From: an uncultured Eubacteriales bacterium
GTDB lineage: Bacteria > Acidobacteriota > Aminicenantia > Aminicenantales > Aminicenantaceae
NCBI GenBank assembly: GCA_964540205.1
Contig: CAZIMJ010000142.1
Location: 1-57,122 of the forward strand
Direction: 5' to 3'
DNA length: 57,122 nt
In this document: in pieces, positions 13,147-56,477 of the stretch
Layout: every line of letters starts with the position of its first letter
Numbering within the stretch: position 1 is the stretch's first letter
The notes under the pieces: generated by a model
Seen by the model: the letters and a program-made list of their open reading frames with translations, nothing else
Databases searched by the model: none
Told to the model about the DNA's origin: nothing
Position numbers and translations under genes: made by a program

Positions 13147-13207
13147 ACTATTCATAAAACAGGTGAATCAATATAAATTACAACTCTGATTTAAAGGAGG
13201 TTACAGA

Positions 13208-14740: not shown

Positions 14741-14801
14741 GATGGGCGATCCAAACAATTCCGTGTTTGTTTGGGATTAATATTGTATTCAGGAGAAGCC
14801 G

Positions 14802-17800
14802 ATGATCGATAAAATTATAGAATATTCTCTAAAGAATAAGTTTCTCATACTGGCCGCGTTTGTTCTGTTGATCGGATGGGGATACTGGGCCTTGGATAAC
14901 ACTCCCATAGATGCGATACCCGATATTGGTGAAAACCAGCAGATCGTGTATGTGGACTGGCCGGGAAGGAGTCCGAAAGATATCGAAGACCAGGTGGTCT
15001 ATCCTCTTTCCGTCAGATTGATGGGTATTCCAGGGGCAAAGGTGATCCGTACGAATTCAATGTTCTCCTTCGGGATGATCAATGTCATTTTTGAAGAGGG
15101 CGTTGATTTTTACTGGTCCAGGACACGAATCCTGGAACGATTGAATCTGGCCCAACAGGACATGCCAGAAGGAGTCATCCCGCAGTTGGGTCCCGATGCG
15201 ACCGCCCTCGGTCAGATATTCTGGTATACGGTGGAAAATGGCTATTATTGCCCCGATCACCCCAAGGAGAGGTATTCGGATCCCGGTTTATGTCCGGAGG
15301 ATGGGCAGGACCTCATCCTTTCTGATTACAATCTGGGTGAATTACGGTCGATACAGGATTGGTATGTCCGGTATCAATTGACTTCAGCCAGAGGGGTTTC
15401 TGAAGCTGCGTCGGTGGGCGGTTTTGTAAAGCAGTACCAGATCGATGTCGACCCGAATAAGCTGCTGGCTTACGGTGTAAATCTCCATTCTCTTTTTTCC
15501 GCTGTCCGTGACAGCAACATCGATGTGGGAGCCAAAGTCATCGAGGAAGGTGGGATGGAATTTATTGTCCGGGGTGTGGGTTTTATTAAATCCATAGAGG
15601 ATATCGAAAACATTGTCATTGGAGCTCACAACGGTGTCCCTGTGTATGTGAAGCACATAGGAAATGTGACCGTTGGCCCGGAATTTCGTAGAAATGGCCT
15701 GGATAAGGAAGGGGCCGAGGTAACTGGTGGTGTTATTTTGATGCGGTATGGGGAAAATACTCTAAGAGTGATCGAGGCAGTCAAAGCCAAGATCGCAGAA
15801 ATCACCCCCGGTCTGCCTCCCGGCGTTCAAATTGTTCCGTTTTATGACCGGACTGAACTCATCAATCGTGCGACCGATAATTTGAAAGAAACGTTGATCC
15901 AGGAAATTATTGTCGCCGTCATTGTCATCCTGATATTTCTCGCTCATTTCCGCAGCAGCATAATCGTCTCCATCATCCTTCCTGTGGGCGTGTTGATCTC
16001 TTTTCTCGTCATGTACTACTTGAAAATTCCTTCGAATATCATGTCCCTTGGAGGGATCGCCATCGCTATCGGGGTCATGGTGGATGCGGGAATTGTGATG
16101 ACAGAGAACATATCGCGGCATCTGGCTGAGTCTGAGGAACGGAAGCTGGAAACAGTGATCGCTGCCTCTAAGGAGGTCGGTTCAGCCATCTTTTTTGCCA
16201 TACTGATCATCGTGATCGCTTTTATTCCTGTTTTTTCACTGAAGGGGCAAGCCGGTAAATTGTTTTCTCCTCTGGCGTTCACAAAAACATTTGCCATGCT
16301 GGGTTCGGCGCTCCTTGCCATAACGCTCATCCCAGTTCTCAGCGCACTTTTGCTGAGAGGAAAGATCAGGTCACCTGAGAGAAATATCGTAAGCCGGTTA
16401 TTGATCCGCCTTTATGAACCTGTGCTCCGGTTTTCTTTGAAGCACAAGATCGTCGTTTTCCTGATCGCGCTTCTGATCCTCGCCAGTGCTTTTGTTCCTC
16501 TTCGGTCCATCAAGAGTGAATTCATGCCCCCATTGAATGAGGGAGATCTGTTGTTCATGCCTGTTCTCTTGCCCGGCGCATCCCTCACACAAGTGATGGA
16601 AGTGATGAAGAAACAGGATGTGATCCTGCAGTCCTTTCCCGAGGTCGAGCTTGTCGTTGGAAAATTGGGAAGAGCAGAGACGCCCACCGATCCTGCTCCG
16701 GTGGGCATGATTGAAACCATAGTGAAATTGAAACCGGAAAAACTCTGGAGAGAGGGAATGACCCGGCAGAAACTGATCAACGCAATGGATAAGGCACTTA
16801 AAATCCCCGGGGTGAGTAACATATGGACACAGCCTATCCGAAACCGCATTGACATGCTGGCCACTGGTATCCAAACACCCGTGGGAGTTAAGGTATTCGG
16901 GGAAGATTTGAAGATCATCGAGAATATCGGGATCCAGGTCGAAAATATCGTTAGAGATATTCCGGGTGCAAGAAATCCATATGCGGAGAGAATCGGTAAC
17001 AAACCCTATATTGAGATAGAAATCGATAGAGAGAAAGCGGCCCGTTATGGCGTGAGAGTTGCAGATATTCAACATCTTATTATGACAGCCATCGGTGGTA
17101 TGAATATCACAACCACGGTTGAAGGGAGGGAACGATATCCGATCCGTGTCCGTTATCCTCGAGAACAAAGGGACAGCTTAGACAGCTTAGAAAGGGTATC
17201 TGTCCCGACGCCCAGTGGTGCGCAAGTTCCACTCAGTCAGGTCGCCTCTGTCAAGAAGGTGGAAGGACCGGCAAAAATTTCCGGTGAAAACACGCTTCCT
17301 TACGTGCGTGTGTTCATCGATGTAAACACCGATGAGGTGGGTGTTGTCGATTTTGTCCGACAGGCCCAGAGGATCGTTAGCGAGAAGATCGATCTGCCTT
17401 CGGGTTATTACATTTCGTGGAGTGGACAGTATGAGTATGAGATACAGGCAAGGAACCGTTTGATGGTGGTTGTTCCCATCTGTGTCTTTGTCATCTTTCT
17501 CCTGCTCTACATCAAATTCAATCGATTTTCCGCGGCTCTGCTTCTCATCCTGTCTTTGCCCTTTGCCTTTGTGGGGGGGATTTGGCTTCAGTATTTCCTT
17601 GGATTTAAGTTCAGCACAGCTGTTTGGGTGGGATATATCGCTCTGTTCGGTGTCGCCGTAGAGGATGGAGTTGTGATGGTGGATTTTTTAATCAAGTCTG
17701 TGAAAAAAGGGAGCCGCACCGCAGAAGACATCGTACAGGCTGGGTTGTTGAGAGTACGGCCTATTGTAATGACAACGGCGACGACGATATTGGCCCTTAT

Positions 17801-17954
17801 TCCCATCTTACTGAGCACTGGAGCAGGCTCCGAGATTATGAAACCCATCGCGACACCCACTGTGGGCGGCATGGTCACCGCAACACTATTGAACTTGATC
17901 CTCGTCCCCGTTTTGTTTGCATGGACCACGAAAACATCCAACTCTAATGTGTAG
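14802..17954 (+). CDS. cusA: CusA/CzcA-family heavy-metal efflux RND permease
   Basis: 1050 aa, 12-TM RND architecture, CusA-like N-terminus (IIEYSLKNKFLIL..), conserved GGIAIAIGVMVDAGIVM. Confidence 0.95.
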   Translation: MIDKIIEYSLKNKFLILAAFVLLIGWGYWALDNTPIDAIPDIGENQQIVYVDWPGRSPKDIEDQVVYPLSVRLMGIPGAKVIRTNSMFSFGMINVIFEEGVDFYWSRTRILERLNLAQQDMPEGVIPQLGPDATALGQIFWYTVENGYYCPDHPKERYSDPGLCPEDGQDLILSDYNLGELRSIQDWYVRYQLTSARGVSEAASVGGFVKQYQIDVDPNKLLAYGVNLHSLFSAVRDSNIDVGAKVIEEGGMEFIVRGVGFIKSIEDIENIVIGAHNGVPVYVKHIGNVTVGPEFRRNGLDKEGAEVTGGVILMRYGENTLRVIEAVKAKIAEITPGLPPGVQIVPFYDRTELINRATDNLKETLIQEIIVAVIVILIFLAHFRSSIIVSIILPVGVLISFLVMYYLKIPSNIMSLGGIAIAIGVMVDAGIVMTENISRHLAESEERKLETVIAASKEVGSAIFFAILIIVIAFIPVFSLKGQAGKLFSPLAFTKTFAMLGSALLAITLIPVLSALLLRGKIRSPERNIVSRLLIRLYEPVLRFSLKHKIVVFLIALLILASAFVPLRSIKSEFMPPLNEGDLLFMPVLLPGASLTQVMEVMKKQDVILQSFPEVELVVGKLGRAETPTDPAPVGMIETIVKLKPEKLWREGMTRQKLINAMDKALKIPGVSNIWTQPIRNRIDMLATGIQTPVGVKVFGEDLKIIENIGIQVENIVRDIPGARNPYAERIGNKPYIEIEIDREKAARYGVRVADIQHLIMTAIGGMNITTTVEGRERYPIRVRYPREQRDSLDSLERVSVPTPSGAQVPLSQVASVKKVEGPAKISGENTLPYVRVFIDVNTDEVGVVDFVRQAQRIVSEKIDLPSGYYISWSGQYEYEIQARNRLMVVVPICVFVIFLLLYIKFNRFSAALLLILSLPFAFVGGIWLQYFLGFKFSTAVWVGYIALFGVAVEDGVVMVDFLIKSVKKGSRTAEDIVQAGLLRVRPIVMTTATTILALIPILLSTGAGSEIMKPIATPTVGGMVTATLLNLILVPVLFAWTTKTSNSNV

Positions 17955-32393: not shown

Positions 32394-35171
32394 CTACTTA
32401 TAACCGAAAAGCATACTATAAATGATTAACAGGATCAGCGAAATTCCGATAAAGAGGAAGATATAACCAAATATCCTCACCAGCGTCATTTTTTTGGGGG
32501 ATATTTCCTTGAGGACAACGTCTTTCTTCAACTGCCCCGATTCTTTCAAGTATTTGTATTCTTCAGGACGATCTTCTTTGTATTCATCGAGGGGGACCAA
32601 ACCTGTAAAAATGACAGGATCGAGGGGGAAGGATTCTGGACGCAGATGGGTATTGAAGAAATGGATTGTGAAGATAAAGCCCACAGCAAGTAGGGCTTCG
32701 TCGCTATGGATGATCATGGCGACATTGATGAACCAACCGGGCAGGAGCTTTGTAAAGAATTCCGGGAACCACAGGATCAATCCGGAAAATCCGATGACTC
32801 CCACTCCCCAGAAAACAGCCATGTAATCGAATTTCTCCCAGTAGGTCCAGCGCCCATATGCAGGTCGGGGACCCATACCTAGAAACCACTTGATCGAGCC
32901 GATAAAGTCTTTGAGATCTTTTTTGTTGAACCAGAGAGCTCTGCCCCCGAAGATCAACTGACGGACAGTTGTCCTTGTTTTGATCTTTAATCTGATCATG
33001 GAGTATATATGCGCGAAAAAATATCCGAAGGTGATTGCGGCAGAAAATCTGTGAATGCGCCCGGCCGCCTCTACTCCGCCAAACATATCGGCAAGAAACC
33101 TGGCCCAGGGCATGCTGGCAAACTTGAGCATCATTCCTGTCAGCGCCAATCCCATAAAACTCAGGATCACGAAGATGTGCATGATTCGCTGGTCTGTCGT
33201 GAACCGTTGGATGTAATACCTCTTGTGGATCTTTTCTGCGTTTCTTTTTTCTTTGAGGTGTTTGTAAGATCGAGGCATCCAGAGCAGAGTATGAATACCG
33301 AAAAAAGTGAATACGGAGATAAGCAATCCGGTCATGGCCCAGAAAGTAAAATACAGAATGGGATATTTCGCTTTATCGTGATGAGTGGCATGTGTCAGGT
33401 AGCCTGTGAATCGCCGATTGGCGTCAGAATGGCATTTCTGGCAGGTTTCGACCACTCTGTTGAATCCCACATGGGAATCAGGGTCGTCCACTTTAAGAAT
33501 GTCGTGTGCGCCGTGGCAATCTGAACACTTGGCTGTCTTCAGATAGCCAAGTGTGTAAGCTTTCCCGTGGATGGTTTCTGTGTAGGACTCTGACAGCTCC
33601 TCGTGACACGACCCGCATTGGTGGGTGACTTCGGACATAAACTGATCCATGTGGATGTCTTTGATCTGGTGTGCGGAGTGGCAGTCTTCACAGTTGGGAA
33701 GCTTCTCATTTAATTTGGAGATGGTTGAACTGTGAATGCTGTTCACAAAATCCTGGTAGATGCCTTCGTGGCAAGTCGCACAAGTCGAGGGAAGATTTTT
33801 GTGGTTAACGGATGATCGTTCATCCTCATGGTTCAAGATGAAGTGTGTACTGTGGCAGTCTGAACATACCGCGCTGGGTAAAAGACCTTTTTTTATCAAA
33901 CCTTGCCCATGTACGCTATTGGAATAATCGACGACAACTGTACCTTGATGGGTCTTTATAGTGGCCGGATGATCCAGCTTGCCATGGCAAGCTCCACACA
34001 ACTCAGGGATTTTTGACCGGTATGTTTTTGCCTGATCATTCAGATGGGATATAATAGTGTGTTTTCCGTGACAGTCTGTGCAGTAAGGAGAATCAGGGTC
34101 CTTCTCGAAATAGGCTTCTCCATGACCACTCTCAAAATAATCTTCAGCGATCTGGGCATGACAATTGGAACAATCGACCCGGCCTGCTGTTTCACAGGGA
34201 CGGTGTTTTTGCGGGCTGATATCTGCATGACATTTGACACAGGGGATGTTTTTGTGTGCAGAATCCTGGATGTCTTCTTTTTTGACTGTAAGAGAGATTT
34301 GTTGGCCTTCCACAGTCTTAAAAACATCGGGTTTCTCATGACACGTCAGACACTCCCGGTCGGAAGTCCTGATGACCAGATTTGTTCGTCTTATGGTATG
34401 AGGCTGATGGCAATCGGTACAGGCGGGTATGGCCCCTGGCTCTTGTTCCCAAAGTTCACCCTTGATGATCTTTATGTGAACTTCTTCAATCCGGGCATGG
34501 CATTTGGTGCATGTGTTGGCGATATTGCGAGCGGAGACTGTAGAACGAGAAATTGTATGTGGGAGGACGAGATGGTTGCCATGGCAATCATTGCAGGTGG
34601 CGGTCACGATGAGCCCTCGTTTGAAAAGGCCTTCCCCGTGGATACTCTGGGAATAATTACTTAAAATGTCGTGTTCTGGGATGTTGTATACTCGAGCAAC
34701 AGGAGCTCCCTCCCTGTGGCATTTTCCGCAGAGTACTGGGATATTCATTTTATAGGTGCGCGATCTCACATCGGAGGGAGGCAGGATACAGTGTTCTCCA
34801 TGACATTCTGCGCAGGTCGGTGCGTAGGGTGCACCTCGTCTTAAAGCATTTCCATGGATTCCCGCATTGAATTCTTCATCGGCCACGTCATGGCAGATCC
34901 CGCAGTTGACTCTTTCTAGTTGTTCCGGATGAGGAAAATCCTCGACATCTGCATTCTGGTGGCAGCCGATACAATCCGAGTCTTTGTGGACCGAGCCTGC
35001 AAATCTTTGGAAATCCACGTACAAGGAGACCGTGCGTCCTCTTCTCTCAGTCGTCAGTTCTCGATCGGAGTGGCAAGTTTCGCAATCTTCGTTACTCTGA
35101 GATCGAGCAATGCAAGGAACAAGAAAGAGGCCCAATAAGACAACGAAGAATATTTTTTTTATCGTCATCAA
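32394..35171 (-). CDS. 19-heme c-type cytochrome fused to a C-terminal membrane b-type cytochrome domain (HydC/FdnI-like; CbcL-like architecture)
   Basis: Signal peptide and 19 CXXCH motifs in residues 30-590. Next come about 330 aa with multiple TM helices and conserved His residues (RFTTDQRIMH..., IIHSDEALLAVGFIFTIHFFNTH). Confidence 0.85.
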   Translation of the reverse strand: MMTIKKIFFVVLLGLFLVPCIARSQSNEDCETCHSDRELTTERRGRTVSLYVDFQRFAGSVHKDSDCIGCHQNADVEDFPHPEQLERVNCGICHDVADEEFNAGIHGNALRRGAPYAPTCAECHGEHCILPPSDVRSRTYKMNIPVLCGKCHREGAPVARVYNIPEHDILSNYSQSIHGEGLFKRGLIVTATCNDCHGNHLVLPHTISRSTVSARNIANTCTKCHARIEEVHIKIIKGELWEQEPGAIPACTDCHQPHTIRRTNLVIRTSDRECLTCHEKPDVFKTVEGQQISLTVKKEDIQDSAHKNIPCVKCHADISPQKHRPCETAGRVDCSNCHAQIAEDYFESGHGEAYFEKDPDSPYCTDCHGKHTIISHLNDQAKTYRSKIPELCGACHGKLDHPATIKTHQGTVVVDYSNSVHGQGLIKKGLLPSAVCSDCHSTHFILNHEDERSSVNHKNLPSTCATCHEGIYQDFVNSIHSSTISKLNEKLPNCEDCHSAHQIKDIHMDQFMSEVTHQCGSCHEELSESYTETIHGKAYTLGYLKTAKCSDCHGAHDILKVDDPDSHVGFNRVVETCQKCHSDANRRFTGYLTHATHHDKAKYPILYFTFWAMTGLLISVFTFFGIHTLLWMPRSYKHLKEKRNAEKIHKRYYIQRFTTDQRIMHIFVILSFMGLALTGMMLKFASMPWARFLADMFGGVEAAGRIHRFSAAITFGYFFAHIYSMIRLKIKTRTTVRQLIFGGRALWFNKKDLKDFIGSIKWFLGMGPRPAYGRWTYWEKFDYMAVFWGVGVIGFSGLILWFPEFFTKLLPGWFINVAMIIHSDEALLAVGFIFTIHFFNTHLRPESFPLDPVIFTGLVPLDEYKEDRPEEYKYLKESGQLKKDVVLKEISPKKMTLVRIFGYIFLFIGISLILLIIYSMLFGYK

Positions 35172-35285: not shown

Positions 35286-35804
35286 TTACTGCTTTTCTGG
35301 CCTAGGATGCTTGACTTTTGCCCAGGCGGCGTCAAAATCGAAGGGTTTATCATGAGCATTTTCATGACAGGAAAGGCACTGTGTTTTTATAGCATCAGGC
35401 GAACCGTATTCTGTCAAACCGTTCTTCACAGCTTCGGCATGGTCTTTCATGATGCTCATCTTTTTGAATGCACTTCCAGGGCCATGACAGACCTCACATG
35501 ACACTCCCTCTTCTTTTAACTCGGGTGCCTTTTCCGCAAGTGGGCTATGGCATTTCAAGCATTTCGGATTGTCGGGAGCATCTGCTGCGAGCGCTTTGGC
35601 ATCATCAGATGTCAGTGCGGAGAATGATTTAGAATGTTTCCTGGCTTCCCATAAGGGAAACTGCTGGCCTTGTTTTTCACTCTTGTGACACATTTTGCAT
35701 TTCGCTGCACCCACATAAGTGAAATCCTGTGTAAAAAGCGTAAAAGGAATGATGATTATCAAAACTGCTGTTAAATAGATTAGCTTCTTCACCTCATCCT
35801 CCAT
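35286..35804 (-). CDS. periplasmic tetraheme c-type cytochrome
   Basis: CKMCH, CLKCH, CEVCH and CLSCH motifs plus a signal peptide (KKLIYLTAVLIIII). Start is ambiguous: ATG 35804, or GTG 35792, which has a GGAGGA 4 nt upstream. The track TTG at 35828 lies at or upstream of the predicted sigma54 transcription start. Confidence 0.8.
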   Translation of the reverse strand: MEDEVKKLIYLTAVLIIIIPFTLFTQDFTYVGAAKCKMCHKSEKQGQQFPLWEARKHSKSFSALTSDDAKALAADAPDNPKCLKCHSPLAEKAPELKEEGVSCEVCHGPGSAFKKMSIMKDHAEAVKNGLTEYGSPDAIKTQCLSCHENAHDKPFDFDAAWAKVKHPRPEKQ

Positions 35805-35835
35805 TCTCAAGATAGAATTATAACTCAAATATTAT

Positions 35836-35851
35836 AGCAAGATGTATGCCA
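35836..35851 (-). promoter_or_regulatory. sigma54 (-24/-12) promoter
   Basis: Minus strand reads TGGCAT-ACATC-TTGCT, with GG and GC at canonical spacing. Lies about 30-45 nt upstream of the tetraheme gene start. Confidence 0.6.
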
Positions 35852-35934
35852 AGATAAAGAGAAAATTATTATGTTGTAATCAAAGAAGTTATAAAGAATA
35901 ACGCAAAAGTTATCAGAAGAATAAAAACACTAAT

Positions 35935-35970
35935 TGGGTGATATGACCCACACCAGGGGGAATTCACCCA
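35935..35970. promoter_or_regulatory. candidate enhancer (UAS) for a sigma54 activator
   Basis: TGGGTGATATGACCCA (15/16 identical to the palindrome at 47368), then 13 nt, then the half-site TCACCCA. Lies 85-120 bp upstream of the sigma54 promoter. Confidence 0.5.
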
Positions 35971-35988: not shown

Positions 35989-38007
35989 TCAGAGGGATTC
36001 GTTTTCTGTTTCTTTTCCTATGGAGTCCACATTTTTTATCAAATTTGTCAAGGCCTCTTCCATATACATATAATTATGGATTCCTGAGCTACCGTCAAGC
36101 TTGATATTCTGAAGTGTGCATTCGGTTTCCCGCAGTGTCTTCTTCTCTTGTTCGCTCAGCTTCAGCTTTTTCTTTTCCTTTAGGAGTGACATCAGAGATG
36201 CGGACAGATCCTTCACGGATTGTTGCCATTCTGTGAACATGTCAGCATAATCCTCATCATGGCAGTCCAGGCACTTATTTTTATCGGACCTGAATATGTT
36301 GTTCTGATCATTAAAATGACAATCTGTACATTCTGCACCCGCTTCGAACATGATGTCTCCGGGGACTTCTTTTTCGTTGAGGATCCCACCCTGATAGAAA
36401 GTTTTCTGCAATTGATGACAACTCGTACAGTCTTTCTTAAGGTCTTTATGGTGACAGGACGCACAGCCCTTCTTTGTGGCGATGAGCTCGCCATGCGTGC
36501 GGACGTTTGAATGGCAGGTGTCACACTGGATGTTCTGTTCGATGAGGTGTTTTTTGTGTGGGAAATTTAGACCATAGACATATGCATTGATTTCCTCGAT
36601 CCCTTGATGGTAGTTGGAACACTGAGTGGGGATGTTTTTAGCTGGAGCTTCAAACGTTGGAGGTTTATAACGAGATTCAATGACATTCAGCGCCTCAAGC
36701 ATCTTATTGTAAGCAGCAAAAAGCAGTTCTTGGGAATAGGCGAAATTGTGGACACTCTTACCCTTGTCCACAATTTCGATATTGAATAGCGCTTCTTCCA
36801 TGAGGGATTCCGCATTCCTCTTGTTTGTGTGTCTTGATCCTTTGACGATCTGCAATGTGGAATTGTAGACAGACCTGATTTGGATTAGTTTTTTTGCGGT
36901 TGAGGTTTCCCAATCCCTGAGGATGAGAGAAAAACCTTTGGCATGGCAGGATTCACAGGATTCCGCCTCGGAAACAAATGTTTCTCCCTTGATGCCGTCG
37001 CCTTTGGCTTCCTCATGAAAGATGTGACAGCCTTTGCAGCTCAGTCCTTTTTCAAGCATGATGTTGGGCATGGGGTGAGAAACGCCCTTGCCACCTTCTC
37101 CGATATACAGCATTTTTTGAGCTTTATGAAAATCCGTATGACAGGATTGGCAATTGGCGATAGATTCAATATCCTTGATGATCTTGTGCTGGATTTCCAT
37201 GTGGCATTGGTTGCATTCGATTTTATTCTGAAAAATGTGTGTGTCGTGCATCAGGTCAGTATCCTCGTATTGCTCAAGCCTATCTTGCTCCCAGTGGCAC
37301 TTGTAACAGTTTTCTCTAGGAACTTCTCCATCACCAAGGACAGTGTTGGCGTGGCATTTGTCACAGGTGAAACCGTTATCGAAAACAAGAGAGTGATTGA
37401 ATCGTGTGTCTTCATTGTTGACAAGGGTGTCTTTTGTATGGCAATGGGAACAATCATCTATCTGGGGATAGTGCTCGCTTTTTTTGAAATGGCAGATGAA
37501 GCAGGTGCTTTCAGTGACCGTGATGTGCTCTCCCTGAACGATCTGGGAGTGGCAGCTTGTGCACTGGAGGCGTTTCCCCCTTTTTAGATCTTCGAAATGG
37601 ATTTTGTGGTCGAAGACAACCTTTTTGAATTTGACTCGGCCTTCAAGTAACCTTCTATCGTGACATCCTTCTGTCAAGCAACTCTCATCGCGGATCTCTG
37701 CCCATGGTTTAGATTTGACGTAAAGCTTAGTCCAGTAGCGACCCACCATGACGAGTCCCTCGATCTTTTTTCTCAACACGGACCGGATTCCTCCGGATGG
37801 TGGATAATGGCACGCACTGCATTCGAATTCACTGTGCGAAGATGTTTCCCAACTTTCGAAAAAAGGCTTCATAAAATGGCATGAGGCACAAAAACCCGAA
37901 TGAGACGTGAATTCCACGGCTGTAACAAACAGAACTAGAACAAATAAAGCGATACTGCCAAAAATGATAAGTCTCTTTTTTCTTTTTTTATGTTTCTTTT
38001 CTTTCAT
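35989..38007 (-). CDS. membrane-anchored multiheme cytochrome (16 CXXCH + 1 CX4CH) with a NapC/NirT/NrfH-like N-terminus
   Basis: ATG 38007 after GAGGA gives MKEKKHKKRKKRLIIFGSIALFVLVLFV (TM anchor). CASCH...CSACH follows, as in NapC/NrfH quinol dehydrogenases, then 14 further CXXCH motifs. The track extension to 38292 overlaps ccsA. Confidence 0.85.
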   Translation of the reverse strand: MKEKKHKKRKKRLIIFGSIALFVLVLFVTAVEFTSHSGFCASCHFMKPFFESWETSSHSEFECSACHYPPSGGIRSVLRKKIEGLVMVGRYWTKLYVKSKPWAEIRDESCLTEGCHDRRLLEGRVKFKKVVFDHKIHFEDLKRGKRLQCTSCHSQIVQGEHITVTESTCFICHFKKSEHYPQIDDCSHCHTKDTLVNNEDTRFNHSLVFDNGFTCDKCHANTVLGDGEVPRENCYKCHWEQDRLEQYEDTDLMHDTHIFQNKIECNQCHMEIQHKIIKDIESIANCQSCHTDFHKAQKMLYIGEGGKGVSHPMPNIMLEKGLSCKGCHIFHEEAKGDGIKGETFVSEAESCESCHAKGFSLILRDWETSTAKKLIQIRSVYNSTLQIVKGSRHTNKRNAESLMEEALFNIEIVDKGKSVHNFAYSQELLFAAYNKMLEALNVIESRYKPPTFEAPAKNIPTQCSNYHQGIEEINAYVYGLNFPHKKHLIEQNIQCDTCHSNVRTHGELIATKKGCASCHHKDLKKDCTSCHQLQKTFYQGGILNEKEVPGDIMFEAGAECTDCHFNDQNNIFRSDKNKCLDCHDEDYADMFTEWQQSVKDLSASLMSLLKEKKKLKLSEQEKKTLRETECTLQNIKLDGSSGIHNYMYMEEALTNLIKNVDSIGKETENESL

Positions 38008-38138
38008 CGCTTTTTCCTCGTGGATATTCAGCCGCGTATTATAGTCGATCTGCCTGAGTTTGGATCTCTTCGTTATCCTGTTATCTTCTCTATTTCTTAA
38101 TCGAACTCTTTTATTACAGAGTCGCTCTGGCACGGAGA

Positions 38139-38957
38139 TCAAGTGTAGCTGTGGAGTCCGGCTAGCAGATAATTCACGCCGAAGTAAGTGAAGAGTGCAG
38201 CAAGAAATCCGATTACGGCGATGAGTGCGGACCGGCGCCCCTTCCAACCCATCACGACCCGTGTGTGTAAATACAGAGCAAAAACGAACCAAGTGATCAG
38301 ACTCCAGGTCTCTTTAGGGTCCCAACTCCAGTAACTTCCCCAGGCTTTATAAGCCCAGACCATACCGAAAACGAGTCCTCCAAGTGTAAAAAGCGGGAAT
38401 CCGATGGCGATGGTTCTATAACTGATGGAATCGAGTTTTTCAGCTGTCAGAGAAGATTTTGCAGCCATTCCCTTTTTCTCTTTAGAATCTGCCACTAGAT
38501 ACATAATGCTTGTGATAAATCCTACAGCGAAAAAAGCCTCACCGAGAAGAGTGACAGAAACATGAAGCCACAGCCAATAACTCTGGAGTGCAGGGACAAG
38601 TGGTGTGGCTTCTTTGGGCATGAGTGGCGAGGAGGCCAGTGCCATCAGCCCGATCACAATAAGCATAAAATACGGACCGGCATTTTTTATTTTAAACTTC
38701 CCTTCGATAAGAACATAGGCAAAGATGGCGGACCATGCGAGGAAAGAGAGGGATTCATACATGTTTGTAAAGGGCGCATGTCCGCTTTCAATTGTTCTTA
38801 AAATCAGAGCCGCCGTATGAACGATGAGACCCGCAAATGCAAAGGTGTATCCTGATTTGGCGAGGTTATCTTTTTTCGAAAAGAGGTAGGTAAAATAAAA
38901 GAATGCAGCCACGATGCAGAGGATAAACGCTATAAGAAATAGAGTGGATTCGTTCAT
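38139..38957 (-). CDS. ccsA: cytochrome c biogenesis protein CcsA/ResC (system II heme handling)
   Basis: WGSYWSWDPKETWSLITW tryptophan-rich (WWD) motif, multi-TM, 272 aa. 4-nt overlap with the resB-like gene. Confidence 0.9.
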   Translation of the reverse strand: MNESTLFLIAFILCIVAAFFYFTYLFSKKDNLAKSGYTFAFAGLIVHTAALILRTIESGHAPFTNMYESLSFLAWSAIFAYVLIEGKFKIKNAGPYFMLIVIGLMALASSPLMPKEATPLVPALQSYWLWLHVSVTLLGEAFFAVGFITSIMYLVADSKEKKGMAAKSSLTAEKLDSISYRTIAIGFPLFTLGGLVFGMVWAYKAWGSYWSWDPKETWSLITWFVFALYLHTRVVMGWKGRRSALIAVIGFLAALFTYFGVNYLLAGLHSYT

Positions 38958-40522: not shown

Positions 40523-41767
40523 CTAGTGATCTTCTCCGTGTGCAGCTCGAAGCACCTTGGCTTCATGTTTGATCTCCGCAAGTGACCGCTGCATCTCGCT
40601 CCAGCCATACCAGAGGGCATAATCCGGATTGGCATGGAATGTCCCCTGGAAGGTTCTCATTCTGTGTTCAAGAAACATTACGAAGAGTTTCTGTTCGACC
40701 AGGGTGGGAGCATCATGGAAGGTAAGGAGATCCGGGAATGGGTAAGCATAACTTTCAGGTTTCTTCAAGGTTCCACCTTTATACAGACCAGCAACTATCT
40801 GGATGGCTTCGGCCATCAACCGGTCGGCTTCCTTGATCATCTGATCGCCTTTTTCCAGTTCAGATTTGGCAAAGTTCAGAGAATGGCAGTCATTACATGT
40901 CTTCAGCATTTTGTCACGCTCTGTCTGCCAGTCTTCTTGAGTTAGGCGGGCAACATTGGCAGCTTTGACCACATCGAGTCTTGCGGTAGGATTCCCCTCC
41001 GGATCGAGAACTCCCAATCCCCGGAGGATCGTGGCACGGTCTGCTGCCCACTGTTTGTCTTCGGGCATGGGTAGCCGGACCGCAAGAAATCCCCAGGCCG
41101 TGAGCACGGCATGATTGCCTTCCTGCATGTGGCAAGTCTGGCAGGTGGGAGCAGCGACAGTTTCAGGGAGTGTTTTATTCTGCTTGAGCAGGTAGCGGAC
41201 GCCATGTTTTGAGCCGGAGTACATTTCCCACTGGGGGTGGTCAAAACCCATGTGGCAAGTCTGGCAGGCTTGAGGTTGTTTGGCCTCTTGAACAGAAAAT
41301 ATATGACGTGTATGACAGGCATCGCAGGAGGCGACACCGAATCCTGCGCCTGTCTTCTTCAATTCTTGAATTTCTTCCTCGGTCTTCAATCCGATCTTAT
41401 GGCAGGCGCCGCAGCCCTTCATCCCTTCCATCAATGCCATCGGTTGCCAGTGTGCTGTGGGCATGGCCTTCATTGCTGCCCATGCGGCGGCGTGCTTTCC
41501 CGCTTTGAACTCTGCGACCTGTTCATCATGACATTCGGCGCATGTGTCTGGTGTAGGGATCCGGACTTTGTCCACGTCATAGGGATCTTTGTGCTGATCC
41601 CCGTGACATACCGAGCAGTCCACATCATTCTGGCTGTGTTTGCTTAACTGCCAATCCGATACAATGTTGGGAGTGACTTTGGTGTGACAGGTCACACACT
41701 CTTTAGCAAAGGCACCCGCACTAAACATAAAAACAGCTAAAAAAATAAAAACGATTTTAGCCTTCAA
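40523..41767 (-). CDS. octaheme c-type cytochrome, hydroxylamine-oxidoreductase (HAO)-like family
   Basis: 8 CXXCH motifs. CDACHTRHIFS...CQTCHMGFDHPQWEMYSGSKHG resembles the HAO/octaheme family core as I recall it. Signal peptide present. TTG start after GGGAGG. Confidence 0.7.
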   Translation of the reverse strand: MKAKIVFIFLAVFMFSAGAFAKECVTCHTKVTPNIVSDWQLSKHSQNDVDCSVCHGDQHKDPYDVDKVRIPTPDTCAECHDEQVAEFKAGKHAAAWAAMKAMPTAHWQPMALMEGMKGCGACHKIGLKTEEEIQELKKTGAGFGVASCDACHTRHIFSVQEAKQPQACQTCHMGFDHPQWEMYSGSKHGVRYLLKQNKTLPETVAAPTCQTCHMQEGNHAVLTAWGFLAVRLPMPEDKQWAADRATILRGLGVLDPEGNPTARLDVVKAANVARLTQEDWQTERDKMLKTCNDCHSLNFAKSELEKGDQMIKEADRLMAEAIQIVAGLYKGGTLKKPESYAYPFPDLLTFHDAPTLVEQKLFVMFLEHRMRTFQGTFHANPDYALWYGWSEMQRSLAEIKHEAKVLRAAHGEDH

Positions 41768-46828: not shown

Positions 46829-47209
46829 TTAGTAGGTTTTTCCCTTATTTTTTTTATCCTCTATCCCTTGAGATAGAGCCCTGATTTGCCCTGAATCGAA
46901 GGGTTTCTCGATGATGGCATTTACTGAAATGCCTTCGATTTGGGACTCGATCTGCTTTTGAGATTGGGCGGACAGGATGATTATTTGTGTTTCTGGATGA
47001 GACTTCTTCAGTTTTTTCAGCATGTCAATGCAGTTCTCATCTTCAATTTCAAAATCAACAAAGATCAACTGGTACGAAACTTTTTCTGTTTGGCTAAAAG
47101 CGTCGTTTATGTTGGAAACAACATCTACGTAATGGCCTTCCTGGGCAAGTATTTCCTTTAAAGACCATCGGATAAGCTTGTCATCGTCAATTACGAGTAC
47201 TTTTAGCAT
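46829..47209 (-). CDS. single-domain response regulator (CheY-like receiver)
   Basis: MLKVLVIDDD..., phospho-acceptor context LIFVDFEI, ILSA, EKPF. No output domain. ATG 47209 follows AAGGTG. Confidence 0.9.
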   Translation of the reverse strand: MLKVLVIDDDKLIRWSLKEILAQEGHYVDVVSNINDAFSQTEKVSYQLIFVDFEIEDENCIDMLKKLKKSHPETQIIILSAQSQKQIESQIEGISVNAIIEKPFDSGQIRALSQGIEDKKNKGKTY

Positions 47210-47238
47210 AAACACACCTTTATTCTAAGTCTCTATTT

Positions 47239-47254
47239 AGCAATAGTTGTGCCA
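47239..47254 (-). promoter_or_regulatory. sigma54 (-24/-12) promoter
   Basis: Minus strand reads TGGCAC-AACTA-TTGCT, a perfect match to TGGCAC-N5-TTGCW. Lies about 30 nt upstream of the receiver gene ATG. Confidence 0.65.
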
Positions 47255-47347
47255 AGATGGAGAATTCGGGCGTATTAATGTATGTCATTGAAAATAATGA
47301 GTTTGTAATTTGATTTTTTGAGTGGATAAAATTTGCAGAAATAATTA

Positions 47348-47383
47348 TGGGTGAAATACACCAAAAGTGGGTGATATCACCCA
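47348..47383. promoter_or_regulatory. candidate enhancer (UAS) for a sigma54 activator
   Basis: Half-site TGGGTGA, then 13 nt, then the perfect 16-bp palindrome TGGGTGATATCACCCA. Lies about 95-130 bp upstream of the sigma54 promoter. The same architecture occurs at 35935-35970. Confidence 0.55.
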
Positions 47384-47389
47384 CTTTTT
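47363..47389 (-). terminator. possible bidirectional intrinsic terminator (overlaps the palindromic UAS)
   Basis: AAAA-GTGGGTGATATCACCCAC-TTTTT lies about 55 nt downstream of the stop of the sigma54 activator gene. This is an alternative or additional reading of the same palindrome. Confidence 0.4.
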
Positions 47390-47440: not shown

Positions 47441-48832
47441 TCATTCAGGCAGGTTAATATCTTTAGAAGTGATGTTCCATTTTTTTGTCTTGTAACGCAT
47501 GGCATCTCGTGTGATGCCCAATGTTTTTGCGGCTTTTGATTTATTCCCATGAGCTTTGTTCAGAGCCCTGATCAAGAGGTATTTTTCGGCATCAGCTAAG
47601 GTCATTGCCCTTCCAAGAGCTTGTTTCTTTGGCTGAGCCGGGTATGAAGAAGGCCTTCTGTCTGAATGGAAGGGGAGGTGTTTAGCCGTGATATAAGGCC
47701 CCTGTTCAAAGATCATGGCTCTCTCTATGGCATTTTTCAACTCTCGGACGTTTCCCGGCCAGTCGTAATCCAGGAATAGCTTTTGGGCCTCTTTGTCAAG
47801 GCCTTGGATGTTTTTCCTGAATCTGATGTTCTCTTGTCGGACAAAAAAACCGCCAAGCGGAAGAATATCGGTTTTCCTTTCCCGCAAGGGAGGGATGTAA
47901 ATGGGGCAAACGTTGAGCCTATAGTAGAGGTCGTGCCGGAACTTTTCCTCTCCAGTCGCTGTTTCAAGGTCTTGGTTTGTGGTGGCGACCACGCGGATAT
48001 CGACTTCGATGTCTTTGAGTCCGCCAACCCGCTTGAATGACTGTGTCTCTAAAAATCGCAACAACTTTGCCTGTAGAGGAAGACTCATTGTCCCGATCTC
48101 GTCAAGAAGGAGTGTTCCTTTATGTGCGAGTTCGACCAGACCCTTTTTCTGTTGTTTGGCATCGGTAAATGCACCTTTTTCGTAGCCGAATAATTCGCTC
48201 TCCAGAAGATTCTCGGGAATGGCAGAACAGTTTATAGCCTGATATGACGCTGCTTTCCTTCGGCTGAGATAGTGAATGGCCTGTGCCAAAAGGTCTTTTC
48301 CGGTTCCGCTCTCACCCTGCAAAAGCACAATTTTGGCCTCGCTCTGGGCGACTATCTGGGTGATCTCAAGAATCTTTTTCATCGTCTTGGATTCAGTGAC
48401 AATAGAAGACAGGTCGAACTGCTTTTGTTCTTTTTCTTTGTAGTATGCGACTTCTTTTTTAAGAGATGCTGTTTCCAGAGCATTGTTCACTGCGCTCTGT
48501 AGTTTGAGGTCGTTGATCGGCTTTGCGATAAAATCATACGCTCCACGGCGCATAGCTGTCACCGCATCGTCGATAGAACCATAAGCTGTGATCATAATCA
48601 CCGGGATTCCTGGCCACTGGCCCTTTATCTCCTCAAGGAACTCTGTCCCTTTCTGATCCGGAAGATTGACATCAAGAACCACCAGGTCAGGGGATTCTCT
48701 CTCTAATATTTGTCTCCCCAACTCACAGGTTTCAGCCTCGAGAGTTTCCAAGTTCCATTCGGAAAACTTTTGAATCAGACTCCATCGGATGAGTTTCTCA
48801 TCGTCGATAATAAGGATCCTCTTTCTGCTCAT
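47441..48832 (-). CDS. sigma54-dependent response regulator (NtrC family enhancer-binding protein)
   Basis: Receiver domain (ILIIDDE, VVLDVNLPD), AAA+ domain (GESGTGKDLLA, ESELFGYEKGAFTDA) and a C-terminal Fis-type HTH (AAKTLGITRDAMRYK). ATG 48832 is preferred to GTG 48838. Confidence 0.95.
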   Translation of the reverse strand: MSRKRILIIDDEKLIRWSLIQKFSEWNLETLEAETCELGRQILERESPDLVVLDVNLPDQKGTEFLEEIKGQWPGIPVIMITAYGSIDDAVTAMRRGAYDFIAKPINDLKLQSAVNNALETASLKKEVAYYKEKEQKQFDLSSIVTESKTMKKILEITQIVAQSEAKIVLLQGESGTGKDLLAQAIHYLSRRKAASYQAINCSAIPENLLESELFGYEKGAFTDAKQQKKGLVELAHKGTLLLDEIGTMSLPLQAKLLRFLETQSFKRVGGLKDIEVDIRVVATTNQDLETATGEEKFRHDLYYRLNVCPIYIPPLRERKTDILPLGGFFVRQENIRFRKNIQGLDKEAQKLFLDYDWPGNVRELKNAIERAMIFEQGPYITAKHLPFHSDRRPSSYPAQPKKQALGRAMTLADAEKYLLIRALNKAHGNKSKAAKTLGITRDAMRYKTKKWNITSKDINLPE

Positions 48833-48834
48833 GG

Positions 48835-50325
48835 TCACTCAGCCCGATTGATAAGAGAAAGGCGAATGGTGAAGACCGTTCCCTTTCCCTCTTCACTTTG
48901 GACATCTATAGAGCCCTTGTGGGCCTCGATGGTCTTTTTGCAGATGGAAAGCCCCAGTCCCGTTCCACGTCTTCGTGTCGTGAAAAAGGGATCAAACACT
49001 TGGGTGAGATGTTCGGCCTTAATTCCTTTTCCATCGTCCCTAATGGCGATTTCCAGCCATCGATCTTTTTGTTGATTCAGGTCGATCGAAATTTCCCCTT
49101 TCTCTTCTATCGCCGCGATACTATTTATCAAAAGATTCAGAATGACTTCCTGGATCTTGTTTTCATCACATAGTATTTGAATCTCTTCTTTGGATTTTTC
49201 CATATGGAACTTGATGTCCTTTTGTTGCGTTTGGGATTGAGCGAAAGTGACAGCTCTTTGGATACATTCGTTTGGATTGACGGGTTTCAAGTTGATTTCT
49301 CTTGGCCGTGCATAGCTCAACAGGTCTTGGACGATGTTGTAAATACGGTCTATCTGTTGCAGGATCTCCGTAAAGATCTCCTTTTGTGGGTCGGCGGGAT
49401 CCGTCCTTTGGTTGATGACTTCTAAGGCTCCTTTAATGCCGGCAATAGGATTTTTTATCTCATGAGCGAGCCCTGCCGCCAGCTCCCCCATCGATGCGAG
49501 GTGCCCCGCCTTTTCCAATTCTCTGCCGTGCAATTCTTCGATTTGTTGCTTTGCCAGTCTAAGATTTGAGACCATGATGTTAAAGCTCTGGGTGAGATCC
49601 CCGATGTCATCATTTTTTAAGGGTCTAAGCTGAACGTGGAGGTTGCCCCCTTGAACTTGATTCATCTTATTCTTTAATTGGGATAGGGGTCGGTTTATGA
49701 TTTTTTCAAAAAGGCGCAGAGTGATAAAGATCAGTACCCCTAGTGCAAGGAAACTTATGATAACAGATCTGAGTTGGGTTTTGTAAATGAACGCAGCCAT
49801 AGGTATTTCCTCAAGATCCATTTCAAGCAGGGCGATTATTCTCTTATCGGATGAATGGCATGCATAACATTCCTCTTTGTTTTGGATGGTGTAAAAAGTT
49901 TGATTTGTGGAAATGTGGTTAATCTTTGGAATAATCGCTTGATCCACACCTGAATAGAGCTCATTTACTTTCTGGATTCGATTTTCTGAGATGTAGTTAC
50001 CAACTTCATCGAAATCTGAAGATTCTAATATTTTCCCTTTGAAGTCGATGATGCGAAGGCTTTTAATTTTATTCGAATCAGCCAGACGCTGCAAAGCGTA
50101 GCCCACATCATTTGGCTTTCCCTCTTGCATTCGATGGGTGACGCTGTATTCTATCATCGAGCCTACAAGTTCTGCCTTCTCTTGACTTAATGTATTGATG
50201 ATGTTTTTTTGTGTGGATAGATAGAGGTACGTCAAAAGGGCGCCCGCCGATATTCCGATGACCACAATGTGAAGGACGATCTTGTTTTTTAAATTCCAAT
50301 CTTTGAGTCGCAGATTTATTTTCAT
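48835..50325 (-). CDS. sensor histidine kinase with a periplasmic CXXCH (c-heme) sensor domain, HAMP, HisKA and HATPase
   Basis: Two TM helices flank a periplasmic domain of about 140 aa that contains CYACH (49869-49855). HAMP region, H-box GLAHEIKNP, and N/G boxes (RRRGTGLGLSI). Confidence 0.9.
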   Translation of the reverse strand: MKINLRLKDWNLKNKIVLHIVVIGISAGALLTYLYLSTQKNIINTLSQEKAELVGSMIEYSVTHRMQEGKPNDVGYALQRLADSNKIKSLRIIDFKGKILESSDFDEVGNYISENRIQKVNELYSGVDQAIIPKINHISTNQTFYTIQNKEECYACHSSDKRIIALLEMDLEEIPMAAFIYKTQLRSVIISFLALGVLIFITLRLFEKIINRPLSQLKNKMNQVQGGNLHVQLRPLKNDDIGDLTQSFNIMVSNLRLAKQQIEELHGRELEKAGHLASMGELAAGLAHEIKNPIAGIKGALEVINQRTDPADPQKEIFTEILQQIDRIYNIVQDLLSYARPREINLKPVNPNECIQRAVTFAQSQTQQKDIKFHMEKSKEEIQILCDENKIQEVILNLLINSIAAIEEKGEISIDLNQQKDRWLEIAIRDDGKGIKAEHLTQVFDPFFTTRRRGTGLGLSICKKTIEAHKGSIDVQSEEGKGTVFTIRLSLINRAE

Positions 50326-51477: not shown

Positions 51478-51915
51478 TTATTTTTTGCTTTTTTTCTTTT
51501 TATCCTCACGATCTGTGAGGTCTTGAAGAGTCAAGCTCTCGAAATAATCTTGCAGCATTGAGCTTGCTTCTTTCCAGACTTCGTGTGTAGCGCAAACATC
51601 TACACGGTCGCAGTAATCGTCATCTTCTACACAATCCACAAGACTCATTGTGCCTTCGAGGGAATTGAGGATGTCGCTGAGTTGGATCTGAGAAGGGTGG
51701 CGGGCCAGGATGTAGCCTCCACCTGCACCCCGGATGCTCTTGACGAGCTTGTTGATCTTGAGAGGTATGATGATCTGCTCCAAGTAGCGGATGGAGATTT
51801 CTTCTGAATCCGAGACGTTTTTGAGAATAATGGCGTCGTTGCCGTTGTTATAATTATGGGCGAGATTCAGCATCAAACGTGTGCCGTATCTGCCTTTGGT
51901 CGAAAGTCTGATCAT
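51478..51915 (-). CDS. Rrf2-family transcriptional regulator (IscR/NsrR-like, three-Cys cluster motif)
   Basis: MIRLSTKGRYGTRLMLNLA wHTH N-terminus, GGGYILAR, and C-x6-C-x5-C (CVEDDDYCDRVDVC). Confidence 0.9.
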   Translation of the reverse strand: MIRLSTKGRYGTRLMLNLAHNYNNGNDAIILKNVSDSEEISIRYLEQIIIPLKINKLVKSIRGAGGGYILARHPSQIQLSDILNSLEGTMSLVDCVEDDDYCDRVDVCATHEVWKEASSMLQDYFESLTLQDLTDREDKKKKSKK

Positions 51916-54308: not shown

Positions 54309-55562
54309 TTATTTGGAGAGGGAGGGTCGCTTTCTCTTTAAGGTTTCGATATTAAAATCTTCAAAAATAATGGCAATGGCGATCTTTGTGATAAAGGTGA
54401 AGATTAAAAATCCAATGGCAAAGATACCCATCGAGACCTTAAGTTCAACCAGGGACGGCCGGTAACCGTAGATCTGTCCCAATGAATCCGGCGTGAATCC
54501 GGGGATGAGGAGAGCGATTCCCTTTTCGATATAAACACCGAACCAGATCAATATGGCCCCGATATTCAATGTGACCACGTTTTTACGGGTGGCAGGGATC
54601 AAGAAGAGCAGGAAGGCGATGAAACTGATGAAAAGTGAAGCCCATCCGTACGTCACGATATCGCGGTTTTCACCCACTCCTTTAAACAGATACTTGAGAT
54701 GAACCAGGTGTTCCGTGTCGGAATAGACCTCTTTGAACACCTCGGCAAAGAAAAAGAAGAGATTGATAAACATGGCATAGGCCATGAGTTCTGCGATCTT
54801 CCAGATGGCCTCATCCTTGATCTCAAAGGTCGTGGTTTTTTTTAGGATCTGAAATAGGATAATAAGAACCGCAGGTCCGGAACAGAACGCAGAGGCCAAA
54901 AATTTTGGGGCGAGCAGGGCGCTATTCCAATATGGCCGGCCGGCAAATCCGTTGTAAAGAAAGGCAGTGACGGTGTGAATGCCTATGGCCACAGGAATGG
55001 AAAACAGTATCAGTGGTGTTAACAAGCGTCTGTTGTACTCCCGTTTATAGAATAGAGTGTAGATCAGGTAACCGACGATGATAAGATTCAGGAAGAAATA
55101 TAGTGTGAGAACTACAGAATCCCAGGCTAGGAGTGATGACGGAACGTTCAGTTTGCCGATCAAAGGAATCATGTGCCACAATCGCAGGGGATTGCCCACA
55201 TCGACGATGACAAACAGGATACACATGATCACGGCACTGATAGCGAGGAGCTCCCCGAATATGACCACTTCTTTGAGGGGCTTCCAGTTGTAGATATAGG
55301 CCGGAATAACCAGCATGATTGCTGCTGCCGCAACGCCAACAAGAAAAGTGAAATTTCCGATATAAAAAGCCCACGAAACTGGATCTCTCATATTGGTAAC
55401 CAGCAATCCCTGTTTCAGCTGCTCAATATATCCCGTACTGCCAACAATGATGAGTGTAAAGAGAAAGGCCAGCCAGAGATAATACCGCTTGCTTCCTCGG
55501 ATAAGAATCTGAAAACTTTCTTTGATAAACCGGATAAAATTCAACCTGTCACCCCATACCAA
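54309..55562 (-). CDS. NrfD/PsrC-family integral membrane quinone-interacting subunit
   Basis: 417 aa, about 10 TM helices, NrfD-like N-terminus (..GSKRYYLWLAFLF..., PVSWAFYIGNFTFLVG). TTG start 3 nt after the upstream stop. Confidence 0.85.
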   Translation of the reverse strand: MVWGDRLNFIRFIKESFQILIRGSKRYYLWLAFLFTLIIVGSTGYIEQLKQGLLVTNMRDPVSWAFYIGNFTFLVGVAAAAIMLVIPAYIYNWKPLKEVVIFGELLAISAVIMCILFVIVDVGNPLRLWHMIPLIGKLNVPSSLLAWDSVVLTLYFFLNLIIVGYLIYTLFYKREYNRRLLTPLILFSIPVAIGIHTVTAFLYNGFAGRPYWNSALLAPKFLASAFCSGPAVLIILFQILKKTTTFEIKDEAIWKIAELMAYAMFINLFFFFAEVFKEVYSDTEHLVHLKYLFKGVGENRDIVTYGWASLFISFIAFLLFLIPATRKNVVTLNIGAILIWFGVYIEKGIALLIPGFTPDSLGQIYGYRPSLVELKVSMGIFAIGFLIFTFITKIAIAIIFEDFNIETLKRKRPSLSK

Positions 55563-55565
55563 TGA

Positions 55566-56477
55566 TCATGTCCCGTAAAAATAGTAGAATTTTGGTTGAG
55601 TGTTGAGTTCCTCTTTGAGGATAAGAACCCTCTTGTTTTCAAGAATGTACCGAATTTCACTGTCCTTGTCTAAAAGATTCCCGAATTTTCTGGCTCCTAC
55701 AGGACAAACTTCAACACACGCAGGGTAACGTCCTTCTCGAACTCGCTGAATACAGAAGGTGCATTTCTCCACAGCCCCTTTGTAGCGTGGTCGGTTACCA
55801 AGATAGTGAGTTTTGGGATTGACGTTTTCGGCGTTCAGTTTCACTTTTCCCCAATTGTAATGACGGGCTCCATAAGGGCATGCGGCCATGCAGCAGCGGC
55901 AGCCGATACACCAGTCGTAATCCACAACTACAATTCCATCAGTGGTGGTCCAGGTAGCGCCGACTGGGCAGCTCTTGACACAGGGAGGATTCTGACACTG
56001 CTGACATTGCACGGGCAGGTAAAAATGCCCTTCTTGGGGCACTTCTTCGTGGTCGTAATACAGATCGGCGTGCAAAAAATCGATACCCTTCTCTTTTTCC
56101 ATCTCCAGGACTTGGATCCAGTGCATCTGGGGCTCCTGTGTTTGATTGTTCTCTTCCATACAAGCGTAAACACACTGGCGGCAGCCGATACATGTAGAAA
56201 TATCGAGGGCATAACCAAAGAATGTCTGAGGTATGGCTTCTTTAGCCGATACGGAAAACTTTTTGCCATATTCTTTGGTATATTTCTCTTCAAGACGTTG
56301 AATGACTTTGGCGATCTCATCCTTGGACATCGATCTGAAATTGTTCTGCAGGAATTCCTCTCGATCCTCCTTGGTGCATGCGATGAATGCCGCAGTCGCA
56401 GAGGTGACCGCCGTGGCTTTTAAGAATGTTCTCCTTTTTAACTTTTGGGGCGAAAGGATGTTTTTGAATATACTCAT
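55566..56477 (-). CDS. Tat-exported 4Fe-4S ferredoxin-type subunit (NrfC/PsrB/HybA-like)
   Basis: Twin-arginine signal KRRTFLKATAV. Multiple CxxCxxCxxxCP clusters (CIGCRQCVYAC, CQQCQNPPCVKSCP, CIGCRCCMAACP, CTFC...CVEVCP). Confidence 0.9.
   Translation of the reverse strand: MSIFKNILSPQKLKRRTFLKATAVTSATAAFIACTKEDREEFLQNNFRSMSKDEIAKVIQRLEEKYTKEYGKKFSVSAKEAIPQTFFGYALDISTCIGCRQCVYACMEENNQTQEPQMHWIQVLEMEKEKGIDFLHADLYYDHEEVPQEGHFYLPVQCQQCQNPPCVKSCPVGATWTTTDGIVVVDYDWCIGCRCCMAACPYGARHYNWGKVKLNAENVNPKTHYLGNRPRYKGAVEKCTFCIQRVREGRYPACVEVCPVGARKFGNLLDKDSEIRYILENKRVLILKEELNTQPKFYYFYGT

Follow-up and report, generated by a model that had tools for sequence, protein, structure and literature searches.

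A probable internal sigma-54 promoter with its own activating sequence in a multihaem cytochrome cluster related to Candidatus Aminicenantes

Is the distal gene pair of a long multihaem cytochrome cluster transcribed from a promoter of its own, and if so, what activates it? This question is raised by a 57,122-nt stretch of DNA (hereafter the window), in which a first-pass annotation had read the segment 35836-35970 as a sigma-54 promoter with an upstream enhancer, the second of its kind in the cluster. We refer to this promoter as P2 and to its counterpart at 47239-47383 as P1. MAGs labelled Candidatus Aminicenantes are the closest relatives.

All genes of the cluster lie on the minus strand, and their order of transcription starts with an Rrf2 regulator, a PAS histidine kinase, a HAMP histidine kinase and an NtrC-type activator, followed by P1 and a single-domain response regulator. 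Next come a decahaem cytochrome, a 623-aa outer-membrane barrel, a second decahaem cytochrome, an octahaem cytochrome, ResB and CcsA, and then a 16-haem NrfH/NapC-like protein (35989-38292), P2, and the two genes that we call c180 and c925. Beyond c925 lie a geranylgeranyl-reductase-family flavoprotein and thiamine biosynthesis genes. Together, the two decahaem cytochromes and the intervening barrel look like a porin-cytochrome conduit.

The first gene after P2, c180 (35286-35804, minus strand), encodes a tetrahaem c-type cytochrome with four CXXCH motifs and a Cytochrome_C554 Pfam match. The second gene of the P2 unit, c925 (32394-35171, minus strand), encodes a 19-haem c-type cytochrome (19 CXXCH) fused to a C-terminal FdnI/HydC-like cytochrome-b membrane domain (Ni_hydr_CYTB and TIGR01583 matches), an architecture that is CbcL-like. 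Both genes had been described correctly at first pass. Translation of c180 may begin at ATG 35804 or, more likely, at GTG 35792, which has a GGAGGA ribosome-binding site. The response-regulator gene that opens the P1 operon (46829-47215, minus strand) likely starts at ATG 47209. Public calls of this small response regulator (153 aa) in two related loci, L161:11544-12005 and L163:6945-7406, begin ahead of the sigma-54 promoter; there, translation probably starts at an ATG giving ~126 aa.

Several further observations concern the wider neighbourhood. The longest open reading frame of the 16-haem NrfH-like gene overlaps ccsA (38139-38957) by ~150 bp, and relatives are called at 662-672 aa; its real start probably lies ~300 bp downstream of 38292. 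The 414-aa octahaem cytochrome (40523-41767, minus strand) is 71-90% identical across MAGs labelled as more than 10 phyla (L001-L080), in contexts that are unrelated in most of these MAGs, and L166 and L169, whose clusters are otherwise syntenic, do not have its gene. This gene looks unusually conserved and horizontally mobile. As a synteny probe it was abandoned, since it is spread over many phyla and most of its 80 matches were non-syntenic, with ~10 loci useful. Elsewhere in the window, genes for a CusCBA-like RND efflux system come after that of a P1B ATPase of the copper/silver type, which has YHS and HMA domains (8990-17954, plus strand), an ordinary arrangement. The minus strand at 54309-57028 encodes a module made up of a small cytochrome, a 4Fe-4S protein and an NrfD-like membrane subunit; L161 and L164 keep it upstream of their clusters.

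Promoter and dyad elements of P2 and P1

Read on the minus strand at 35851..35836, the sequence TGGCATACATCTTGCT matches TGGCAY-N5-TTGCW with 0 mismatches (-24 TGGCAT, -12 TTGCT), which bears out the original sigma-54 assignment. Perfect matches to this consensus occur twice in the 57 kb window, compared with 0.16 expected: one at 35836 and one at 47239, each on the minus strand. The orientation of P2 fits its gene: the -12 element ends at 35836, the candidate start codons at 35804 and 35792 are on the same strand together with the GGAGGA ribosome-binding site, and the distance from the -12 element to the ribosome-binding site and start codon is ~20-32 nt. Transcription from P2 is predicted to start at ~35824-35827.

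Upstream of this element, TGGGTGATATGACCCA occupies 35935-35950 and is followed after exactly 13 nt by TCACCCA (35964-35970), all three features lying where the first-pass annotation had put them. Together, these sites lie 84-119 bp upstream of the P2 -24/-12 element. The near-identity of the 16-mer to a palindrome at 47368, also pointed out at first pass, is far from what chance would give: at no more than 1 mismatch, the 16-mer has 2 copies in the window (0.00 expected), each situated ~85-130 bp upstream of P1 or P2. A third, weaker resemblance at 49589 (3 mismatches, within the kinase gene) is at chance level, with 0.25 expected, and was set aside.

P1 (TGGCACAACTATTGCT, 47239-47254, minus strand) precedes the response-regulator and porin-cytochrome operon. 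Its enhancer spans 47348-47383, where TGGGTGA at 47348-47354 is separated by 13 nt from TGGGTGATATCACCCA at 47368-47383. Such arrays had been interpreted as three half-sites that are inverted between the two loci. The sites are indeed present at those coordinates, but on their sequence the dyads are better read as a tandem pair, one strong and one degenerate, than as three half-sites. When both loci are read with their genes, each has two 16-bp dyads spaced 20 bp centre-to-centre: at P2, a strong promoter-proximal dyad (35935-35950, TGGGTCATATCACCCA on the coding strand) and a weak promoter-distal one (35955-35970, TGGGTGAATTCCCCCT on the coding strand), the latter containing the supposed third half-site; at P1, a strong distal dyad (47368-47383) and a weak proximal one (47348-47363). 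In gene direction, P1 thus reads TGGGTGATATCACCCA then TGGTGTATTTCACCCA, and P2 reads TGGGTGAATTCCCCCT then TGGGTCATATCACCCA. The apparent inversion arises because a different dyad has decayed more at each locus; among P1 orthologues, the stronger dyad is distal in some and proximal in others.

The geometry relative to the promoter is likewise shared. The P2 dyad centres lie 93 and 113 bp from the -24 GG, and the proximal centre is 93 bp away at P2 versus 103 bp at P1, a difference of one helical turn. A symmetrised matrix from 32 sites gives the dyad consensus TGGGTGATATCACCCA, in which G2-G4 and A7 and their partners T10 and C13-C15 are nearly invariant. Midway between the P2 enhancer and promoter is an A/T-rich island, AACTTCTTTGATTACAAC (35873-35890, minus strand), whose AAC..TTT..T..C columns are invariant in a 7-sequence alignment. 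This island may be a bend or an IHF-type site. By eye, the P2 spacer gave approximate matches only to the IHF consensus, and we make no claim from them.

The resemblance between P1 and P2 could in principle be the remnant of a segmental duplication, or chance. The two loci do share 36-42 bp, and nothing further was found in favour of such an origin. When we aligned both intergenic regions and 900 bp around each, however, only the dyad array (42 bp, 76% identity, inverted) and 9 bp at the -24 element, ATCTTGGCA, could be matched, while 0.00 copies of the 16-mer are expected by chance and shuffled sequences contain 0 dyad pairs. The shared spacing is therefore not part of a larger duplicated segment, a concern that had accompanied the original proposal. 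We reject segmental duplication and consider this explanation as a whole to have almost no chance of being correct.

The dyads might also act at the RNA level, as a hairpin forming the intrinsic terminator of the upstream 16-haem gene, rather than as protein-binding DNA. A simple scan does pick out 35950-35935 as marginally terminator-like: 5 pairs can form, and a T-run comes 8 nt later. At P1, the strong dyad and the A and T runs beside it (47363-47388) have a predicted hairpin of -16.5 kcal/mol (z = -4.1) followed by UUUU, 58 nt past the activator stop codon; this P1 dyad may double as terminator and binding site. At P2, by contrast, the RNA fold is no better than that of shuffled sequences (z = -1.7), and the site lacks the make-up of a rho-independent terminator. 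Two P2-type orthologues, L114 and L123, are without a T-tract and without a stable fold (z = 0 in L123), and several orthologous dyads are not self-complementary (e.g. TGGGTGATATGCCCCG and TGCGTCATATCCCCCA) but keep the half-site bases and the 20-bp spacing. There was no Rfam match at E <= 1 in the whole window or in the P2 region. The first-pass annotation had pointed to a lack of flanking A/T runs at P2 as an argument for a protein site. This is accurate for the adjacent bases, but a T5 run begins 8 nt past the dyad on the coding strand. Its preference for a protein site over a terminator stem nevertheless agrees with our data, because the terminator hairpin is not conserved, and we regard a purely RNA-level role as highly improbable.

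Conservation of the module across related loci

We compiled ~45 upstream regions of c180 orthologues from a metagenome scan with the tetrahaem protein and from homologue look-ups. The P2 module is kept in six metagenomic loci: L081, L130 and L170 (86-90% protein identity), L171 (80%), L114 (61%) and L123 (57%). In an alignment of 7 P2 regions, conserved columns are confined to the two dyads, the central A/T-rich island and TGGCA...TTGC, and the flanks have diverged. In none of the ~45 regions does the sigma-54 element occur without the dyads, or the dyads without it. Conservation in orthologous loci, which had been suggested as a check on the promoter reading, is thus found in part: the six loci retain the dyads at a spacing of 20-21 bp together with the -24/-12 element, whereas most of the more distant orthologues lack the motif.

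Indeed, most c180 orthologues (L002, L003, L082-L122 with the exception of L114, L172 and L173) are without the module. In L002 (15600-15740), L003 (19230-19310), most of L082-L122 and L173, a TTGACA-N17-TAnnAT promoter follows a conserved TATAGAnAAAATA box, and in L092-L101 and L172 the c180 orthologue follows an ArsR/MarR-like gene. The conserved sigma-70 box of these other orthologues, TATAGATAAAATATTGACA, is absent from the window even at 3 mismatches. Because most c180 orthologues lack the module and have sigma-70-like promoters instead, P2 is neither ancestral nor obligatory for the c180/c925 pair. Judged by these upstream sequences, the sigma-54 wiring of c180 is lineage-specific, and, since other orthologues carry a sigma-70-like promoter or an ArsR/MarR-like neighbour, the promoter type has been swapped at an orthologous position. 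The sigma-54 type occurs in at least two separate lineages in a rough NJ tree of the 168-aa cytochrome, a tree too weak to count independent origins rigorously.

These findings bear on the possibility that c180 in the window is itself transcribed by sigma-70, from a perfect extended -10 element TGCTATAAT, with TGGCAT-N5-TTGCT being incidental and the dyads binding another regulator. TGCTATAAT overlaps the -12 element and is conserved in the window, L081, L130, L170 and L171, and most other c180 orthologues clearly use TTGACA-N17-TAnnAT promoters. However, L114 and L123 keep GG-N10-GC and the dyads but not TATAAT, there is no -35 hexamer 16-18 nt from TGCTATAAT, and a sigma-70 scan reports no -35/-10 pair at that position. 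The perfect co-occurrence of the sigma-54 element with the dyad pair at ~90-105 bp would also be unexpected for a sigma-70 promoter. We consider an exclusively sigma-70-dependent P2 unlikely; a dual sigma-54/sigma-70 promoter is possible.

The association between dyads and sigma-54 promoters extends beyond c180. For this comparison, we combined 160 fetched loci with the window (1.74 Mb of related DNA) and defined a dyad pair by summed mismatches of no more than 7. All seven dyad pairs found (7/7) have a sigma-54 promoter 89-103 bp downstream, in the gene's orientation, and shuffled sequence yields 0 pairs. With further loci added, we count 16 non-redundant modules, in which the dyads are spaced by 20 bp (21 bp in two) and the proximal centre lies 91-107 bp from the -24 GG. 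The modules accordingly show the layout of an enhancer, for which at least 2 inverted-repeat sites ~80-150 bp upstream of the -24 element are expected.

The -24/-12 element of P1 is kept in L003, L010 and L161-L169. In all of these except L168, the complete P1 module lies directly downstream of the activator gene (64-92% activator identity), with a perfect or near-perfect -24/-12 element before the response-regulator gene; L169 has three to four tandem sites. L168 (11392-11780), which encodes a 65% identical activator orthologue, keeps a perfect sigma-54 promoter, and its upstream sites are of the form ATGCCCA-N13-TGGGGCA, not two dyads 20 bp apart.

The reading of 35836-35970 as a sigma-54 promoter with an enhancer is thus supported on three sides, by conservation and by the outcomes for duplication and for termination. 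As far as sequence comparison reaches, the original observation is confirmed as real and its interpretation as essentially right.

The activator, its sensor kinase and a proposed mechanism

The gene immediately upstream of P1 (47441-48838, minus strand) encodes an NtrC-family enhancer-binding protein with Pfam and NCBIfam matches to the full architecture of this family: REC (PF00072), sigma-54 AAA+ (PF00158, 1e-65), PF25601 and a Fis-type HTH (PF02954, HTH_8). Its best PDB matches are Aquifex NtrC4/NtrC1 (4l4u and 1ny5, E = 1e-96). The HTH recognition helix ITRDxxRYKxKK is conserved in orthologues. The sigma-54 contact loop (residues ~219-224) reads GAFTDA, not GAFTGA, and is the same in the L003 and L010 orthologues; GAFTDA has been given as a tolerated, functional loop variant that is compatible with activation (PMC4641369). 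A scan of the ORFs of the window found no other sigma-54 activators. There is no rpoN in the 57 kb window; that the genome encodes it is suggested only by the activator gene together with the conserved -24/-12 elements.

Just upstream, a HAMP histidine kinase (48835-50325, minus strand) is the presumed cognate sensor of the activator, going by gene order. Its periplasmic loop (residues ~38-185) contains a haem-c motif, CXXCH, that is conserved in orthologues of ~50% identity. The sensor domain has weak Pfam matches to Cache_WalK and Mcp40H-20_sensor (E = 0.027) and no PDB sequence match; a homologue search with it gave 2 proteins only, and its AlphaFold model (pLDDT 54) was too poor for use. 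In NCBIfam, activator and kinase reach no equivalog cut-off.

We presume that this activator binds both enhancers, an assignment that rests on adjacency and co-occurrence only. Dyads and activator gene occur together in the window and ~10 orthologous loci; in the window, P2 shares its contig with the activator gene. The dyads could alternatively be operators of a different regulator, such as the Rrf2 protein (51478-51915) or an unlinked factor. All close relatives retain the Rrf2 gene upstream of those for the kinase and the activator, which is in favour of such a role. Yet L002 carries two Rrf2 genes and no kinase, activator or response regulator, and it has sigma-70-like promoters and no dyads. 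The dyads therefore track the activator, not Rrf2. Their placement also speaks against an operator function: they lie ~90-125 bp upstream of the promoter without overlapping it, and they form tandem pairs separated by two helical turns, the classical layout for an enhancer-binding protein. A -24/-12 promoter accompanies every pair. We think it very unlikely that a regulator other than the adjacent activator is the one that uses them.

Overall, we consider it likely that 35836-35970 is a working internal sigma-54 promoter with its own activating sequence, sharing the activator encoded at 47441-48838 with P1 and receiving its input from the HAMP kinase; here the binding, the phosphorylation and the signal are what we infer. 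The proposed sequence of events is as follows. Given the haem-c site in the periplasmic domain of the kinase, the circuit probably reports periplasmic redox state or electron-acceptor state, and the kinase would phosphorylate the NtrC-type activator. Phosphorylated activator dimers would then bind at both dyads, on the same side of the helix, the 20-bp spacing being two helical turns, and assemble an active AAA+ ring. By looping across the A/T-rich spacer, this ring would contact and remodel the closed sigma-54 holoenzyme complex at P2, which would drive c180 and the 19-haem/cytochrome-b fusion gene c925.

The same activator would act at P1 (47239-47383), a module identical to P2 that adjoins the activator's own gene, and P1 would drive the response regulator, the porin-cytochrome conduit, the octahaem cytochrome, the ResB/CcsA haem lyase and the NrfH-like multihaem protein. 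Together, P1 and P2 would co-induce an outer-membrane conduit, the maturation of cytochromes and two inner-membrane cytochromes that are candidate quinol oxidisers, with P2 serving as the internal promoter for the distal pair.

If correct, this arrangement assigns a concrete regulon to a so far uncharacterised NtrC-family activator from a phylum without a cultured model, comprising one binding motif, two promoters and ~twelve genes, among them the porin-cytochrome conduit and the two candidate quinol-oxidising inner-membrane cytochromes. It also points to a periplasmic haem-based sensor as what may turn on extracellular electron transfer in these sediment bacteria, in line with the genetic demonstration for cbcBA in Geobacter. 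Furthermore, the locus offers a clean comparative example of sister lineages that wire the same gene pair either to sigma-54 and an activator or to sigma-70 and a local repressor-type regulator. Our understanding of sigma-54 control as such is unchanged by these findings.

A more speculative proposal goes further: the haem-c kinase and its activator could form a redox-tuned switch for branches of extracellular electron transfer in uncultured Aminicenantes, by analogy with Geobacter BccR, and the inner-membrane module of c180 and c925 could have been recruited more than once through wholesale replacement of a sigma-70 promoter by a sigma-54 promoter and a tandem-dyad enhancer. We put this forward tentatively and hold it to be rather doubtful at present; repeated recruitment, if true, would make this a natural case in which the birth of an enhancer at an orthologous position can be traced.

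Comparison with known systems

The module is of a well-known type. Like classical NtrC enhancers (glnAp2, with its tandem NtrC dyads), it has same-face tandem dyads ~100 bp upstream of a -24/-12 promoter, and its activator has the same architecture. Unlike classical NtrC-type activators, the protein reaches no NCBIfam equivalog cut-off and has the contact loop GAFTDA. To our knowledge, TGGGTGA-TA-TCACCCA matches no published NtrC, ZraR, AtoC, DctD, NifA or LuxO site, and the activator-site motif is not known to have been described before.

The closest functional precedent for the activator and P2 is BccR (GSU0598) of Geobacter sulfurreducens, without which the sigma-54-dependent bc-cytochrome operon cbcBA is not induced when the redox potential is low (bioRxiv 10.1101/2021.04.15.440034). 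In both cases, a REC/AAA+/HTH activator adjoins a sigma-54 promoter, the target is a multihaem c-type plus dihaem cytochrome-b, quinone-oxidoreductase-like module of extracellular electron transfer, and the operon includes a response-regulator gene. The present system differs in belonging to the Aminicenantes phylum, in having an activator that is co-directional with its target (BccR is divergent), and in using one enhancer type at two promoters; its likeness to BccR is one of architecture. It also differs from cbcBA in that the b and c parts are fused here into one 925-aa, 19-haem protein.

A second precedent is DVU3142 of Desulfovibrio vulgaris, which is predicted to control ohcBAC (PMC4641369). 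That case, like ours, is a comparative-genomics prediction in which a sigma-54 promoter and an activator site precede the genes of an octahaem-cytochrome/cytochrome-b membrane complex. DVU3142, however, is a one-component activator divergent from its target, whereas the activator described here is two-component and would serve two promoters.
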